Source of the DNA: Candidatus Elarobacter sp.
GTDB lineage: Bacteria > Acidobacteriota > Terriglobia > Acidiferrales > UBA7541
Reading direction: 5' to 3'
Assembly: GCA_035639075.1 (NCBI GenBank)
Contig: DASQYT010000176.1
Coordinates: 1 to 41,536, forward strand
DNA length: 41,536 nt
Shown: positions 35,227-41,536 of the stretch, piece after piece
Numbering within the stretch: the stretch's first letter is position 1
How the letters are laid out: each line of letters starts with the position of its first letter
Translations under genes and position numbers: made by a program
The notes under the pieces: generated by a model
What the model saw: the letters and a program-made list of their open reading frames with translations, nothing else
The model's database searches: none
Told to the model about the DNA's origin: nothing

Positions 35227-35296
35227 TTTGGGGACGACACAGAGTCGAGTTAGGCAGACCACGAGTTATCGCGAATTAGCTCATCAGAAAACCAGA

Positions 35297-36508
35297 ATGC
35301 TCAGCTACGAGCAAGCACGGAAGAAAGTCATCGAACAAGTTGGGAAGAGAAAAGGACCGCGCGCAGTCGCCAGTGTGAGTGTGTGGGATGCGCTGGGATT
35401 GGTGCTGGCGCAAGAGGTGAAGACGGACCGCGAGTATCCGCCGTTTGATCGCTCGACGCGGGATGGATATGCGGTTCGTTCGAATGAAGTTTCGCCCGGC
35501 GCACAACTTAAGTGCGCGGGGGAAATCAAAGCGGGCGACACTGTGAGGGAATCACTGGCCGCAGGAACTTGCTGGCAAATCATGACGGGCGCGGCGGTTC
35601 CGGCAAGCGCGGATGCCGTGGTGATGATTGAGCACACGAGCCGCGAGGGCGACCTCGTGCGATTCGAACGAGTGGTGCAGCGGGGGCAGAACATTGTGCC
35701 GAGAGGAAGCGAGGCCGCGGCTGGGGAAGCGATGTTGAAGCCCGGCATGAGGCTTGGGTATGCGGAGCTGGCGCTTGCGGCGCAAGTCGGGGCGGTGCAA
35801 TTGCAATGCGCGCAGCGGCCACGCGTGGCGATTCTTTCCACGGGTGACGAAGTAGTTTTGATCGACGAAACGCCCGGCCCATTTCAGATTCGAAACAGCA
35901 ACAGCGTTTCTCTTGCCGCGCAGGTTCGTATTGTGGGTGGCGAGCCGGTAGTGCTGGGAAATGGGGCGGACCGCATCGATGACTTGGGAGAGAAAATCGA
36001 GCACGGGTTGAAAGAAGATGCGCTAGTGCTGTCCGGCGGGGTCTCCATGGGGAAGTACGACCTGGTTGAAAACGCGCTGAAAGCCATGGGCGCGGAATTC
36101 TTCTTCGATGCGGTCGCGATTCGGCCGGGGAAGCCTGCGGTCTTCGGAGTGTGCCAGGCAAAGCCGGTGTTTGGCCTGCCCGGCAATCCGGTTTCGACGA
36201 TGGTTACTTTTGAATTGTTTGTGGCGCCCGCGATTGATCTGTTAAGCGGCGCGGAGGCGCGGGCATTGCCACTGGTCGAAGCGCGACTGGCGGAACCGTT
36301 GAACGAGAGGCCTGGGCTGACGCATTTCTTGCCAGCACGAGTGGAGTGGCGCGAGAGGATGCCTGAGGTGAAAGCGTTGAAGTGGCAAGGCTCGGGGGAT
36401 ATCGCTACTCTGGCAAAGGCAAACTGTTTCCTGGTGGTGCCGGGGGACCGGGAAAAGATCGTGGCTGGCGAGAGTGTTTCCGTGCTGCTGAGAAAGGACG
36501 TCGTCTAG
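35297..36508 (+). CDS. moeA: Molybdopterin molybdotransferase MoeA
   Basis: PPFDRSTRDGYA, IMTGA, STGDEV, SGGVSMGKYD, RPGKP, GLPGNPVS. Confidence 0.95.
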   Translation: MLSYEQARKKVIEQVGKRKGPRAVASVSVWDALGLVLAQEVKTDREYPPFDRSTRDGYAVRSNEVSPGAQLKCAGEIKAGDTVRESLAAGTCWQIMTGAAVPASADAVVMIEHTSREGDLVRFERVVQRGQNIVPRGSEAAAGEAMLKPGMRLGYAELALAAQVGAVQLQCAQRPRVAILSTGDEVVLIDETPGPFQIRNSNSVSLAAQVRIVGGEPVVLGNGADRIDDLGEKIEHGLKEDALVLSGGVSMGKYDLVENALKAMGAEFFFDAVAIRPGKPAVFGVCQAKPVFGLPGNPVSTMVTFELFVAPAIDLLSGAEARALPLVEARLAEPLNERPGLTHFLPARVEWRERMPEVKALKWQGSGDIATLAKANCFLVVPGDREKIVAGESVSVLLRKDVV

Positions 36509-36518
36509 GCGATCGTGT

Positions 36519-37013
36519 ATGGCGAAGCTGTCGCATTACGGAAAAAAGGGCGAAGTGCGAATGGTCGACGTGTCCGACAAGGCGGTGACGACGCGAACAG
36601 CTGCGGCACGTTGTTTTGTGAAGATGAAGCCGCGCGTGGTGAACGCCGTCCGGCGGCTGAAAAACCCGAAAGGGAATCCGCTGGAAGTGGCGCGGATTGC
36701 GGGAATTGCCGCGGCCAAGAGGACCGCGGAGTGGATACCTCTTTGTCACCCACTGCCCTTGACGCACATTGATGTGTCCGCGCGGCTGTGCCAGAATGGC
36801 GTGGAAGTGCAATCCACAGTGACCACGGCCGCCCAGACGGGCGTGGAAATGGAAGCCCTGGTAGCGGTTACCGCAGCGGCCCTCACGGTCTACGACATGT
36901 GCAAAGCCCTCGATAAAGGGATGGAAATCACGGACATTGTTCTCGTCGAAAAGACGGGCGGCAAGAGCGGGGATTTCCGTCGGCAGATGGCGCCCAAAAG
37001 GCGCACCCGATGA
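36519..37013 (+). CDS. moaC: Cyclic pyranopterin monophosphate synthase MoaC
   Basis: MVDVSDK, AAKRT..IPLCHP, TGVEMEAL, YDMCKA, KTGGKSG. Confidence 0.96.
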   Translation: MAKLSHYGKKGEVRMVDVSDKAVTTRTAAARCFVKMKPRVVNAVRRLKNPKGNPLEVARIAGIAAAKRTAEWIPLCHPLPLTHIDVSARLCQNGVEVQSTVTTAAQTGVEMEALVAVTAAALTVYDMCKALDKGMEITDIVLVEKTGGKSGDFRRQMAPKRRTR

Positions 37014-37768
37014 CCACGGCTGGGCATAAAAGCATAAAATTGCTGCTTGCGGACGATAATCCGCTGGTGCGCGATCTGATCGTAAAGGGGCTTGACCCGT
37101 TCTGCGCGGTGGAGGTTTCCACAGACGGGGCAGACGCGCTCTTAAAGGTTGTGGATACGCCTCCCGACGTGATTCTCTGCGATTACAAGATGCCCGGCCT
37201 GGATGGCAGGCAACTCTTCGAGAAACTTCGCGCGCGTGAGGCAACACGCCACATTCCATTTCTGTTCATGGCCAGCCGGCCGGATATCGAGGAGCGGCTG
37301 AGGCCGCTTGTGGATGGCGTCGAGGATTTTATCCCCAAGCCATTCTTGATTAAGGACCTGGTGCGTATCACGAAAAAAGTGGTCGATCGCCTGCACCTCG
37401 AAAAGCTGCAGAAGAAAGCTTCGCGGCCAGGCGTCATTCAAGGACGTCTCGAAGAGATGAGCATGATCGACCTAATGCAATCGCTGGAGATGGGTCAGAA
37501 ATCGTGCCGGTTGATCGTGCAGAGCGGCGGCGCGCAAGGCGAACTTTATTTTGCGAGCGGGCAATGCCGCGACGCGAAGATCGGCAAGCTCGAAGGCGAT
37601 GACGCGGTTTATAAGGTGGTGCTTTGGACGGCGGGAGAATTCGAGATCGATTTCAACGCCGCGAATGCCTCGACAAAGACGACCACGACGCGCAATACGA
37701 CCGGCCTGTTGATGGAAGCCATGCGGCTGATGGACGAAGCCAACCGCGATACGGTCGAGACGCCGTGA
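37010..37768 (+). CDS. Response regulator with REC + DUF4388 (PatA-N-like) domain
   Basis: LLADDN..LCDYKMPGLDG..IPKPF, then GRLEEMSMIDLMQSL...GELYF..G...W..GEF...LLMEAMRLMDE. Confidence 0.85.
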   Translation: MTTAGHKSIKLLLADDNPLVRDLIVKGLDPFCAVEVSTDGADALLKVVDTPPDVILCDYKMPGLDGRQLFEKLRAREATRHIPFLFMASRPDIEERLRPLVDGVEDFIPKPFLIKDLVRITKKVVDRLHLEKLQKKASRPGVIQGRLEEMSMIDLMQSLEMGQKSCRLIVQSGGAQGELYFASGQCRDAKIGKLEGDDAVYKVVLWTAGEFEIDFNAANASTKTTTTRNTTGLLMEAMRLMDEANRDTVETP

Positions 37769-37790
37769 GTCTCACGAAGAAACCTTCCCG

Positions 37791-38267
37791 ATGCGCGTTG
37801 CAGTCCTAACGATCAGCGACTCCGTGACAAAAGGCGAGCGAGAGGATTTGTCCGGCCCCGCGGTTGTTGCATTTTGCCGTGGACTGGGTTGGGAAATTGC
37901 GTCGATGCTGCACGTCTCCGACGATCCCGCAAGCATCCGCGAGCAGATGCGCGCCGTGGCGGATTCCGGCCGCGTGGACGTTCTCTTGACCACGGGCGGA
38001 ACAGGGATCGGGCCGCGGGACAACACGCCCGAAGCGACTCAGGCGGTAGCTGACCGTATCGTGCCCGGACTTTCCGAAGAAATGCGCCGCAAGGGACTGG
38101 AGAAAACGCCCACGGCTGTTTTATCGCGCGGTACTGCCGCAGTCAGAACCAAGACGCTCATCGTCAATTTGCCGGGAAGTCTCAAGGGTGCAGTGGAATC
38201 CCTCGAAGTTGTAGCGCATCTGCTCCCGCACGCGGTCAAAGTTCTGCACGGAGCGCGGCACGACTAG
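37791..38267 (+). CDS. MogA/MoaB-family molybdopterin adenylyltransferase
   Basis: LTISD...REDLSG, TTGGTGIGPRDNTPEA, LSRG, NLPGS. Confidence 0.92.
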   Translation: MRVAVLTISDSVTKGEREDLSGPAVVAFCRGLGWEIASMLHVSDDPASIREQMRAVADSGRVDVLLTTGGTGIGPRDNTPEATQAVADRIVPGLSEEMRRKGLEKTPTAVLSRGTAAVRTKTLIVNLPGSLKGAVESLEVVAHLLPHAVKVLHGARHD

Positions 38268-38273
38268 CGCGCG

Positions 38274-38699
38274 CTACGCCGCTTTCGGACTTCGCAGGGG
38301 AATAAGAGCGCGCAGCCGGTCCTCGCGAAAGTAAAGACCTCCCCACAACAGCACGCCCAAATACGTCGGGAACAAGACATGGCTGAATAATGGATCGCCG
38401 GCGCGTAAGTGCGTGGCAACGGCGCCGCCAAGATAACCAGTCAGCAAGATCGCGCCAAGAATCGAGGTCTTCGGAATGACATAGAGGACAGTGGACACTA
38501 ACAAGATCATCCCGAGAACTGGAGCGAGGTTAAGGGGCCAACCCACGTGAGCGAATGCCTCCACTACGGGGGCCGGAGCCGGCGTTACAAATTTTAAGAT
38601 GGCGTCGAAAGTAAGGAACGTGACAACCAATCCGGTCATGATACGTCCGGCCCAGAGCCCTTTCTTCGAGACGGGGGCGGTTTGCGCGTCTGAGGGCAT
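38274..38699 (-). CDS. DoxX-family membrane protein
   Basis: WAGRIMTGL, LYVIPKTSILGAILLTGYLGGAVATH, WGGLYFREDRLRAL. GGAGG SD. Confidence 0.88.
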   Translation of the reverse strand: MPSDAQTAPVSKKGLWAGRIMTGLVVTFLTFDAILKFVTPAPAPVVEAFAHVGWPLNLAPVLGMILLVSTVLYVIPKTSILGAILLTGYLGGAVATHLRAGDPLFSHVLFPTYLGVLLWGGLYFREDRLRALIPLRSPKAA

Positions 38700-38774
38700 G
38701 AATTTTTCCTCCGTATGCTCCCTGTAATACCACAAATTTGTGAAATCGCTTCCTGTAATCCAAGAACAAGCGCA

Positions 38775-39227
38775 CTAAACCCCAAACTGCCGCAGGTGAT
38801 GATCCAGATGCTTGTACATCAATGTCGCCCACTCCTCCCTTGTTAGCGGCCCAAAAAAGCTATGCGGATGCTTGGTGCAGCCCTTCGGTCCCGCCGCAGC
38901 AAACCGGTCAATCAATCCGCGCAACCTCTCCCGTTCCGTTCCCAGGTCCCGTTCATCCTGCGCTACAAGATCCTTCACCCTCGGCGAATTCCGGCGCATC
39001 GGTTGGTCGTTCCCAAGCGCCATCGGCTTCACCATCCGTCCGATGATCCGTCCCAGAAACATCCATGGCGGAATCCTGTCCTCTAACGCCCACTCCAAAC
39101 CCGCAGAGCAGTGCGCCACCGCTTGCGCCGCATTCATCTTGCCCCACAGCCGCTCGCTATTCGGCCTCAGTTGCGCCATCCGTTCCTTGACTTCTTCCAC
39201 CCTAGCCGCTTCAAAGAGATTTTTGAT
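38775..39227 (-). CDS. DUF1569 / DinB-superfamily protein; ATC at the expected start position
   Basis: (I)KNLFE..WGKMNAAQAVAHC..HSFFGPLTREEW..KHLDHHLRQFGV. GGAGGAGG lies 9 nt before ATC. Confidence 0.8.
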   Translation of the reverse strand: MKNLFEAARVEEVKERMAQLRPNSERLWGKMNAAQAVAHCSAGLEWALEDRIPPWMFLGRIIGRMVKPMALGNDQPMRRNSPRVKDLVAQDERDLGTERERLRGLIDRFAAAGPKGCTKHPHSFFGPLTREEWATLMYKHLDHHLRQFGV

Positions 39228-39294
39228 GCGAAATTGCCTCCTCCGGTCAAACACCTCACAACCCAGTGCGCCTGAGCATGTTGCCCGCAGGCCG

Positions 39295-39591
39295 TTATCC
39301 GCCAGCGATTGCGCCGATGATGAGAAGAGGCTCCGCACCCGATGCGACGGCATCCGGCAACGGTGTATCCGGCGGCTCCAGAGAATAATCTTCGGAGCAA
39401 GCGAAGAACCGCAGAAAAGGCCGACGCTCCTGCGTGACGTGATCACGGATGGTGCCGCGCAGCATCGGGTACTGCGCTTCGAGCGCATCGAGGACCGAGC
39501 GCTGTGTAACTGGGCCCTCGACGTGGAGCTGAATCTCCGGACCGACTCGCGCCAGCGCTCGCAGATGGCCCGGTAGGACGACGCGAATCAT
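39295..39591 (-). CDS. MoaD/ThiS-like ubiquitin-fold protein with C-terminal GG
   Basis: [28 protein letters not shown], ends AIAGG-stop. ATGA-coupled to the upstream gene. Confidence 0.88.
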
Positions 39592-40772
39592 GGCAGCGTT
39601 TGAACCTCGACAGAAAGCACAGCCGGAAGGTGTTCCACGATGGGGGACCAACTGTCGCCTGCGTCGGCGCTGCCGTATAGCTGTCCGCCCGTCGTGCCGA
39701 AATAGACGCCGCATTTATCGAGCGAGTCGACGGCCATGGCGTCGCGCAATACGTTTACGTAGCAGTCCTTTTGCGGCAACCCCTTGGTCAGCGCTTCCCA
39801 TTCGTTTCCGCCGGATTTGCTGCGGTACACGCGCAGCTTGCCCTGGAGAGGGAAGTGCTCTCCGTCGCTCTTGATGGGCACGACGTAAATGGTTTCCGGT
39901 TCGTGGGCGTGGACCTCGATCACGAAGCCGAAGTCTGTCGGCAGGTTGCCACTGACCTCTTTCCACAAGTCACCCGCATTGTCGCTGCGCATAACGTCCC
40001 AGTGTTTCTGCATGAAGAGGACGTTCGGGTGCGAGGGATGCATGGCGACGTGATGAACGCAGTGGCCGACCTCGGCGGTTGGCTCGGGGATGTATTGGGA
40101 ATGGAGGCCCTTGTTGATGGGCTTCCAGGTGTTGCCGCCGTCGTCGGTCCGAAATGCGCCCGCGGCTGAGATGGCGATATAGATACGCTTTGGATCCTTG
40201 CGATCCAAAATGATGGTGTGGAGGCACATGCCACCGGCGCCGGGCTGCCAGCGCGGCCCGGTGCCATGGCCGCGCAATCCAGCGAGTTCCTTCCAATTCT
40301 TCCCGCCGTCCGTCGAGCGGAATATGCCAGCGTCTTCCACGCCCGCGTAGACGGTGTCCGGATCGGTGGGCGATGGTTCAAGATGCCAGACACGCTTGAA
40401 TTCCCAGGGATGCTGCGTGCCGTCGTACCACATGTGGGTGGTGAGAGGTTTGCCGGTTTCCGCGGACGTGTCGTAGACGAACTTATTGCTCTCGCCTTTG
40501 GGCGGGCCCGGCTTGGCGTCCTTCTCCCCCGGCGGCGTCCCCGGCTGTATCCAAGTCTTGCCGCCATCATCCGAGCGCTGAATGATCTGCCCGAACCAGC
40601 CGCTGGTCTGCGACGCATAGATGCGATTCGGGTCGGCGGGCGAGCCCTTGAGGTGATACATCTCCCAGCCCGCAAAATGCGGACCGCTGACGTCCCACTT
40701 TTGGCGCTTACCATCCGATGAAAGGACAAATGCACCCTTGCGCGTTCCAACCAGTACCCGTACTCCGCTCAT
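39588..40772 (-). CDS. BNR/Asp-box beta-propeller protein (sialidase-like)
   Basis: Repeated Asp boxes [52 protein letters not shown]. No signal peptide. Confidence 0.88.
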
Positions 40773-40858
40773 CTCTCACTCCTTTTTATGAATTGCATAT
40801 GCATCTGGCCAAATCGAAATTGTTTATTCAGAAGCGACCGCGCAATCTTCCGTTCGCG

Positions 40859-41257
40859 CTATCTTCGAAGAGGGAGGAGTGCGCGCAACCTAGCGTCGCG
40901 CAAATAAAGTCCTGCCCAGACCAACACGCCGAGAATGACCGTAGCGAAGTAGGATGGGTCGCCCACGCGCACGTTGCTTGCGGTTGCGCCGCCGAGATAG
41001 GCGGTCATGAGGATCGCGCCAAGATACGAACTTTGCGGAATGACGTAGACGAGCGTGCAGGCGATCTCGAGAATCCCGATGACAACAATCAGACTTTCGG
41101 GATATCCATAGTGTGCGAACCCCTGCAGGACTGGCGTCGGCTTCAGCAATTTCATAACGCCGCTGAAGAGCAGCAAGAGCACAGGCAGGGCACTGATGAT
41201 ACGTCCGGCCCAGAGCTGTTTTTTCGAGACGGATAACGCTTGAGCACCCGACGCCAC
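40859..41257 (-). CDS. DoxX-family membrane protein
   Basis: WAGRIISAL, YVIPQSSYLGAILMTAYLGGATAS, WAGLYLRDARLRALLP. GTG start with GGAGG SD. Confidence 0.88.
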   Translation of the reverse strand: MASGAQALSVSKKQLWAGRIISALPVLLLLFSGVMKLLKPTPVLQGFAHYGYPESLIVVIGILEIACTLVYVIPQSSYLGAILMTAYLGGATASNVRVGDPSYFATVILGVLVWAGLYLRDARLRALLPLRR

Positions 41258-41325
41258 GAATGTTTCCTCCAGGCCAATCTCAATCGGTCACAGCGAATTC
41301 GTGCGAGTGAAACTATGCCAATCTT

Positions 41326-41342
41326 ACTTGCAGAATGCAAGT
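41326..41342. promoter_or_regulatory. Perfect palindrome, probable HxlR operator
   Basis: ACTTGCA-GAA-TGCAAGT between the divergent doxX and hxlR-like genes. Confidence 0.65.
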
Positions 41343-41365
41343 TAAAATATGCTACAGTGGAAAAT

Positions 41366-41536
41366 GTGCCAAGGAAAAAGGCGAGTCCCAAGCGGCGGTC
41401 GGGTTGTCCGCTCAACGCTTCGGTGGAGATCCTCGGTGACCGCTGGTCGCTGCTGATCATTCGCGACATGATGCTGCGGGGATTCCGCACCTATAAAGAG
41501 TTCCTGGGTTCCTACGAGGGAATCGCGACGAATATC
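41366..41536 (+). CDS. HxlR/DUF24-family winged-helix regulator (5' part, truncated by window end)
   Basis: Manual translation from GTG 41366: (M)PRKKASPKRRSGCPLNASVEILGDRWSLLIIRDMMLRGFRTYKEFLGSYEGIATNI. Confidence 0.85.
   Translation, partial: MPRKKASPKRRSGCPLNASVEILGDRWSLLIIRDMMLRGFRTYKEFLGSYEGIATNI

Follow-up and report, generated by a model that had tools for sequence, protein, structure and literature searches.

A two-gene unit of an Asp-box beta-propeller and a ubiquitin-like protein, tentatively read as a sulfur carrier and its acceptor enzyme

The locus

The window analysed here is a stretch of 41,536 nucleotides from Candidatus Elarobacter sp. (contig DASQYT010000176.1), and the subject is a pair of adjacent genes near its end, encoding a beta-propeller with Asp-box repeats and a beta-grasp ubiquitin-like protein (Ubl) that ends in Gly-Gly (GG). 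The pair lies within a run of five genes facing a divergent regulator gene (Table 1). The stop codon of the propeller gene and the start codon of the Ubl gene overlap as ATGA, and the propeller has, by inspection, no signal peptide. A first-pass annotation of this DNA had described the six genes, the overlap, a palindrome in front of the regulator and four groups of potential metal ligands in the propeller (WHL, MCLH, GHCVHH and QKHW), all of which were found in place. Its statement that the operon lacks genes for E1/MoeB, MoaE, ThiG and JAB was also borne out: none of these was present within the operon. It had further proposed that the five genes act together in thiol stress; the conserved system consists of two genes, propeller and Ubl, and not of five.

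Table 1. Features of the propeller-Ubl locus in the window.
Feature	Position	Strand	Remarks
doxX (DoxX_2 membrane protein), upstream of the propeller	41257-40859	-	Pfam DoxX_2; accessory
Seven-bladed Asp-box beta-propeller, 394 aa (core gene 1)	40772-39588	-	Pfam BNR/sortilin; predicted metal site
CysO/SAMP1-like beta-grasp Ubl, 98 aa (core gene 2)	39591-39295	-	ends AIAGG, contains RFFAC
DUF1569/DinB-fold protein with AVAH and HLDHH histidines	39227-38775	-	Pfam DUF1569, weak DinB_2; accessory
Second DoxX_2 membrane protein	38699-38274	-	Pfam DoxX_2; accessory
HxlR/DUF24-type regulator, N-terminal RSGCP	41366-41536	+	truncated by the contig end; clade-restricted
Palindrome ACTTGCA-GAA-TGCAAGT (7-3-7), predicted HxlR operator	41326-41342	.	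clade-restricted

Linkage and distribution of the pair

Linkage was assessed at 215 propeller loci from close relatives, distant Acidobacteriota, plasmid-database records, Actinomycetota, Chloroflexota and Myxococcota, a set that leaves out four duplicates and two unpublished genomes. A Ubl gene on the same strand was present at 191 of the 215, in several phyla; depending on the clade it precedes or follows the propeller gene. The C-terminal GG was found in all 191 linked Ubls. Many of the loci span just 1.5 kb on each side, and the linkage may therefore be undercounted. At the 80 close loci, the Ubl was found 72 times, HxlR 25 times, DoxX 5 times and DUF1569 not at all. Among 201 Acidobacteriota genomes (a tally that includes the unpublished genome G024, which has neither gene), the close-clade propeller occurred in 28 and the close-clade Ubl in 28, with 27 genomes in common; the two unmatched genomes are explained by a partial propeller match in one and a Ubl remnant with a stop codon in the other. 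Overall, the pair was present in about a third of the sampled genomes (66/201 in Acidobacteriota, 36/101 in Chloroflexota and 33/121 in Actinomycetota), and it also occurs in Pseudomonas, Burkholderia and Cupriavidus. The two-gene module is real and widespread, and apparently undescribed: full-text searches of the literature, and term look-ups in three surveys on ubiquitin-like proteins of prokaryotes (PMC1779556, PMC1949818 and PMC2948915), turned up no account of the pair, a coverage that does not extend to subscription journals and supplements.

Tandem propeller paralogues were seen in two Chloroflexota genomes (G368:C1:760940-766125 and G376:C274:13141-15623). At a Fuscovulum locus (L112:2542-5137) the propeller gene follows a gene of the glutamine synthetase family, with no Ubl nearby.

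Fold and conserved site of the propeller

The structure of the propeller was predicted with a mean local confidence (pLDDT) of 93.9 as a single propeller of seven blades. The propeller matches PDB entry 3b7f (Reut_B4987, YP_299179.1), an Asp-box propeller from structural genomics, with an E-value of 7e-74, a Z-score of 50.9 and a root-mean-square deviation of 1.8 over 355 residues. 3b7f belongs to the same family and keeps H185, D238, H240, Q255, H257 and R343; in the available part of PMC2716378 it is listed as a seven-blade protein with function 'Not known', and no link to a Ubl is mentioned there. Among the matches listed in structure searches, no characterised metalloenzyme ranked above generic propellers, and a search of the Atlas returned the propeller family itself only.

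Six residues (H185, S202, H240, Q255, H257 and R343) were present in all 213 sequences compared. Position 238 is Cys in 177 and Asp in 36 of them, 211 have Lys or Arg at position 12, and R343 is the sole Arg conserved at a level of at least 97%. A second, independent set comprised 79 full-length representatives of 150 listed (identities of 27-78%); here the counts were 73 for H185, 72 for S202, 71 for H240, 70 for Q255, 68 for H257, 78 for R343 and 70 for Cys or Asp at 238, so a minority of the family has lost part of the site. Other residues proved not to be family-wide (His130 of WHL in 15 of the 79, Cys183 in 32, His237 in 16 and His241 in 4), and His130 was rejected as a family-wide catalytic residue on this count. 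The clustered metal ligands proposed in the first-pass annotation thus survive in part: a conserved set of H185, H240, H257 and Cys/Asp238 stands, and the His of WHL is specific to one clade. The exchange of Cys for Asp beside three His suggests, from the alignment, a set of metal ligands. According to the strand order in the model, the conserved residues are located at the starts of the inner strands and in the loops between strands 2 and 3, which is described as the functional face of Asp-box propellers (PMC2716378); in the model, the ligand set would accordingly be placed on that face.

Sialidases are recognised by an F/Y-RIP motif together with an Arg triad. The databases name the propeller exo-alpha-sialidase and the Ubl MoaD/ThiS, and after the propeller's own family the next matches in profile and Foldseek searches were GH74 enzymes, which, like GH33, share the Asp-box repeats and the propeller fold. 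GH33 enzymes have six blades and GH74 enzymes two tandem seven-blade propellers (PMC2716378), whereas the present protein has one seven-blade propeller in 394 residues, a His triad, a single invariant Arg in place of a triad and no F/Y-RIP motif, either in the query or in the 79 representatives. Both GH33 sialidase and GH74 xyloglucanase were rejected on these grounds, in agreement with the doubt about a sialidase raised earlier.

Among the family members, one entry of 704 aa (P0437) has a Ser/Thr protein kinase domain fused N-terminally to the propeller. Three longer entries (P0004, P0009 and P0094) show an internal duplication of blades 2-3 and may be assembly chimeras.

Identity of the Ubl

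The Ubl of the window, searched alone, gave no match in Pfam (ThiS included) or NCBIfam. With a profile of the family, the best matches were the CysO-type chains 4n6e_B (E 4e-18) and 3dwg_C (E 2.5e-17). Pfam ThiS was matched by 30 of 58 family members, the NCBIfam SAMP1 model by 36 and a Urm1-like model by 4. Arg56 and the GG were invariant across 310 Ubl sequences. The Cys of RFFAC, a motif noted in the first annotation, turned out to be clade-specific: it is present in 114 of 189 locus-derived Ubls and replaced by Asn, Asp or Gly in distant clades, and Cys65 was therefore rejected as a family-wide catalytic residue.

The host genome carries three other ThiS-family genes, one of which adjoins MoaE on contig C73, and an E1 of the ThiF type. 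Since this genome already encodes a MoaD beside MoaE, the Ubl of the window is not the MoaD, as the first reading had held. A run at 35228-38267 on the plus strand, whose genes we take to be moeA, moaC, a response regulator and mogA, abuts the operon convergently on the opposite strand; this adjacency of molybdenum cofactor (Moco) genes to the pair was seen in 1 of 80 relatives. A Moco link was rejected on this count and on the separate MoaD-MoaE. In 3 of the 66 propeller genomes (G001, G141 and G059), a ThiF/MoeZ gene lies next to the pair in divergent orientation.

Two computations on contact between the proteins speak neither for nor against binding. Coevolution analysis of 310 pairs, which is underpowered at an effective number of 134, yielded scattered residue pairs, and a complex prediction of propeller, Zn and Ubl scored 0.01, with unfolded controls.

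Natural fusions and masked GG ends

Two distant loci encode Ubl, GG, linker and propeller in a single frame. With the 120 matches listed in a search with one of these, the fusion set comprises 122 sequences; in all of them the Ubl precedes the propeller and G85-G86 are invariant, and the linker to the first propeller motif varies from 7 to 82 residues. With the shortest linkers, about three residues separate the GG from a strand whose beginning lies on the propeller face away from the conserved histidines, and for this reason the GG presumably cannot reach its own site uncut. An AlphaFold2 model of a natural fusion (pTM, the global confidence score, of 0.77) had both domains folded and residues 83-100 disordered; it showed no readable docked pose and likewise speaks neither for nor against binding. 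For the fused MoaX, cleavage after Gly82 is required for function (PMC4326299), and the MoaD-MoaE protein of Deinococcus is cut by a JAMM protease (PMC8832034). Apart from the fusions, 21 Ubls carry residues after the GG. The host genome, at a completeness of only 54%, gave no match to Prok-JAB.

Regulation in the close clade

With up to two mismatches allowed, the palindrome in front of the HxlR gene has no second match in the window (shuffled sequences gave a mean of 0.13). It recurs, with at most two mismatches, no more than 140 nt upstream of 26 of 26 HxlR homologues, of which 25 have the N-terminal Cys-Pro motif. In loci without HxlR, 7 matches were found in 642 kb; five of these lie directly upstream of the propeller and one is the window's own site. 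The palindrome is confined to a close, mainly acidobacterial clade and was absent from every distant-clade group. Because of its association with HxlR, it is likely the operator of a Cys-bearing HxlR repressor, with the pair under this repressor in the close clade; the divergent regulator and palindrome remarked on at the outset are thus a conserved regulator-operator pair there. The regulator is cut off in the window; the full-length copy in the closest relative found, an Acidobacteria soil genome (L001), matches Pfam HxlR, and there was a weak match to an RrpB model. DUF24 proteins such as YodB, HypR and QsrR sense electrophiles. By analogy with these, the HxlR protein may do so as well, and the inducer would be an electrophile. 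It shares with these repressors and with RrpB the HxlR family, the N-terminal Cys-Pro (25/26) and an inverted-repeat operator; here the operator is ACTTGCA-N3-TGCAAGT, and outside the close clade the regulator was not seen with the pair (none in the distant groups).

A second type of regulation was considered with the ECF42 promoter pattern TGTCG-N16-19-CGTC, taken from a table in PMC6180224. In 1400-nt windows at 212 loci it gave 19 sense and 12 antisense matches, none of them in the present window. The accessible part of a bioRxiv classification of ECF factors added nothing on targets.

Neighbouring genes

The other genes of the run do not belong to the conserved system. At L001, which shares 92% DNA identity with the window and is syntenic on both sides, exactly the segments with the upstream doxX and DUF1569 are missing. 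Neighbours at 106 close loci were VOC (23), HxlR (22), YciI (15) and DUF4760 (12), and more rarely DoxX (6), SRPBCC (6), a DUF6596 sigma factor (6) and RibD_C (5). Among 125 neighbour proteins scanned at distant loci, of 182 called, YciI was found three times and MoeZ once, and DoxX, DinB and HxlR not at all. Since the neighbours rotate, the system is taken as two genes placed in variable stress cassettes. The five-gene thiol-stress system of the first-pass annotation was rejected, as its accessory genes are absent from most close loci (DUF1569 0/80, DoxX 5/80), from the nearly identical L001 and, for DoxX, DinB and HxlR, from the distant neighbours. In a comparison with anti-phage defence systems, including those with ubiquitin-like proteins, none of four proteins matched a PADLOC model (2023 library, in which newer systems may be missing).

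The DUF1569 reading frame opens with ATC after a strong GGAGGAGG site and has an in-frame GTG at 39254 (39227-39254, minus strand); the gene may be decaying or may rely on a rare start codon. In one acidobacterial family, a tandem double-YciI gene follows the propeller (L110:700-1350, L118:2535-3134 and L121:2395-3006), with the Ubl on another contig in two of the three genomes. L046 (4223-4969) and eight other close loci have, upstream of the propeller, an unannotated protein of about 220-250 residues with a DRNAEIALAR-like motif and no Pfam match.

A possible sulfur-carrier mechanism

We regard it as nearly an even chance that propeller and Ubl are a sulfur-carrier and acceptor-enzyme pair, in which a predicted metal site transfers sulfur to a small molecule. 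This reading is favoured because the carrier is CysO-like, the GG is kept in the fusions, masked forms lean towards genomes with JAB and the partner has an enzyme-like site. MoeZ or MoeB of the host would convert the Gly-Gly end of the Ubl to a thiocarboxylate. The Ubl would then contact the propeller, where Arg343 and Lys12 would hold the carboxylate of its tail, and the predicted metal site (His185, His240, His257 and Cys/Asp238) would transfer the sulfur to an acceptor, a small molecule that is likely toxic or electrophilic. Where the GG is masked by a tail or a fusion, a JAB/Mec protease of the host would free it first. In the close clade, the repressor with its N-terminal Cys likely switches on the unit together with swappable genes of a detoxification type.

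The masked forms were compared with the presence of a strong Prok-JAB match in the genome: 18 of 19 masked GG ends occurred in JAB-positive genomes versus 69 of 97 unmasked ones (combined p ~0.04), and within Acidobacteriota masked ends were present in 9 of 34 JAB-positive and 0 of 19 JAB-poor genomes (p=0.019). Several observations count against a carrier and acceptor pair, and some of them concern this comparison. In a second set, in which two Ubls ending GGG were counted as unmasked, the effect was not replicated on its own (9/53 versus 1/10, p=1.0), and genome G226 has a masked GG that is a counterexample to the link. The tallies were made by hand, the cut-offs differed between the two sets and related genomes are not independent samples, so that the support from JAB is modest. 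E1 of the ThiF type was present in 66 of 66 propeller genomes and the propeller in 0 of 13 genomes without E1; this is weak evidence because E1 is nearly universal in the sample (188/201 genomes). No linked Ubl was found at 24 of the 215 loci. Three of the genomes with missing linkage keep an unlinked Ubl that groups with the linked ones (L156-L158), and three large actinomycete genomes yielded only Ubls linked to what we take to be CysM or threonine synthase, so that those propellers would borrow a carrier or need none; BexX is said to borrow its carrier in this way. Finally, the neighbours of the distant loci are heterogeneous, with no conserved neighbour that would define a substrate, and a role in detoxification therefore rests on the close clade and on one Pseudomonas aeruginosa locus, where VOC, YciI and a sigma factor form the context. 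The P. aeruginosa homologue is presumably PA1356. PA1356 is mentioned in passing, in the accessible text of PMC11538994, as promoting adhesion and biofilm.

The conserved set of three His, Cys/Asp, Arg and Lys would also fit a metal-dependent hydrolase or lyase that acts on the C-terminus of the Ubl to clean it, with release of the product of a Ubl-GG-X adduct once the thiocarboxylate had trapped an electrophile, a function that we hold to be unlikely. Mec reportedly acts likewise on CysO-cysteine, and in the propeller lyase PAL a C-terminal glycine is reportedly handled by three His and one Arg. In line with such an activity, no JAB is encoded beside the pair and at least 20 pair-bearing genomes lack a strong JAB match (hand tally); tails should then persist in JAB-less genomes, yet nearly all masked ends (18/19) are in JAB-positive ones, a weak objection, which a propeller that cleaves thioesters alone would escape. 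Decidedly unlikely, in our view, is a Ubl of the SAMP1/Urm1 kind that modifies oxidised proteins by conjugation or persulfidation with the propeller as ligase or substrate adaptor. The matches to the SAMP1 (36/58) and Urm1-like (4/58) models, the stress-regulated context and the kinase-propeller fusion agree with it, but the pair has no linked gene for a JAB or E2-like protein, carriers of the CysO type are the nearest relatives of solved structure, and the invariant His triad would favour small-molecule chemistry over an adaptor.

The C-terminus buried in the fusions, the 21 unfused Ubls with residues after the GG and the propellers without a dedicated Ubl could mean that the Ubl binds non-covalently, as a subunit or plug, to an independent propeller enzyme and that its GG end is never activated. 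Such a role appears improbable to us, because the GG is invariant in 122 of 122 fusions while the linker varies, and because JAB-positive genomes have more than their share of the masked forms. An ordinary glycosidase (sialidase or GH74-like) next to a spare MoaD for Moco synthesis would explain the database names, the GH74 matches, the adjacent moeA-moaC-mogA run and a moaE gene near one distant locus; it is largely refuted, and has very little probability left, given the single seven-bladed propeller without F/Y-RIP (query and 79 representatives) and with one invariant Arg, the separate MoaD and MoaE on contig C73 and the rarity of the Moco adjacency (1/80).

Relation to known sulfur carriers

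As a sulfur-carrier and acceptor pair, propeller and Ubl would be closest to the CysO systems, CysO-CysM-Mec-MoeZ of Mycobacterium and CysO-BexX of Amycolatopsis, the latter part of a 2-thiosugar pathway. The Ubl profile is nearest to chains of this type, the AxxGG end is shared, E1 is supplied from elsewhere and the GG is sometimes masked by a tail. The partner differs: it is a His-rich propeller, as opposed to a pyridoxal phosphate enzyme or ThiG-like barrel, and the pair does not lie within a biosynthetic cluster. MoaD-MoaE and MoaX have the same order of carrier, GG and enzyme, both as separate and as fused proteins with the GG kept; here the propeller has no homology to MoaE, and the host has MoaD and MoaE besides. 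SAMP1 and Urm1 belong to the same beta-grasp family with GG, and neither system is known to have a propeller as its dedicated partner.

Bacterial sulfur-carrier proteins have few known acceptor enzymes, each of which defines a pathway. We see somewhat less than an even chance that the propeller stands for a new class of such partner enzymes: a cytoplasmic seven-bladed metalloenzyme, carried under a sialidase label by thousands of genomes, that uses the thiocarboxylate of a dedicated Ubl to thiolate and neutralise toxic compounds or to repair damage, arises in some lineages from a JAB-cleaved Ubl-GG-propeller precursor and belongs to stress regulons of a Cys-sensing or ECF type. If so, new sulfur or ubiquitin-like chemistry would be added to bacterial stress biology, for a family with a solved but unexplained structure (3b7f) that is widely misannotated as sialidase. 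Direct tests are possible through the operator, the fusions that occur naturally and the residues that are conserved.

Further observations at the loci

In two soil metatranscriptomes (shares 0.09 and 0.06), a few contigs of low depth covered the propeller and DUF1569 genes; they were not counted as expression, because carry-over of DNA is not excluded. Within the Moco gene run of the window, the embedded response regulator is CheY-like with a C-terminal extension. At six loci of a Verrucomicrobia type (L009, L015, L020, L021, L025 and L028), the pair is found among genes for aldehyde dehydrogenase, a RidA-like protein and kynureninase. In Chondrinema (L115:230-4816) it adjoins genes for cysteine desulfurase, sufU, moaE and xdhC, a context of sulfur and Moco metabolism.

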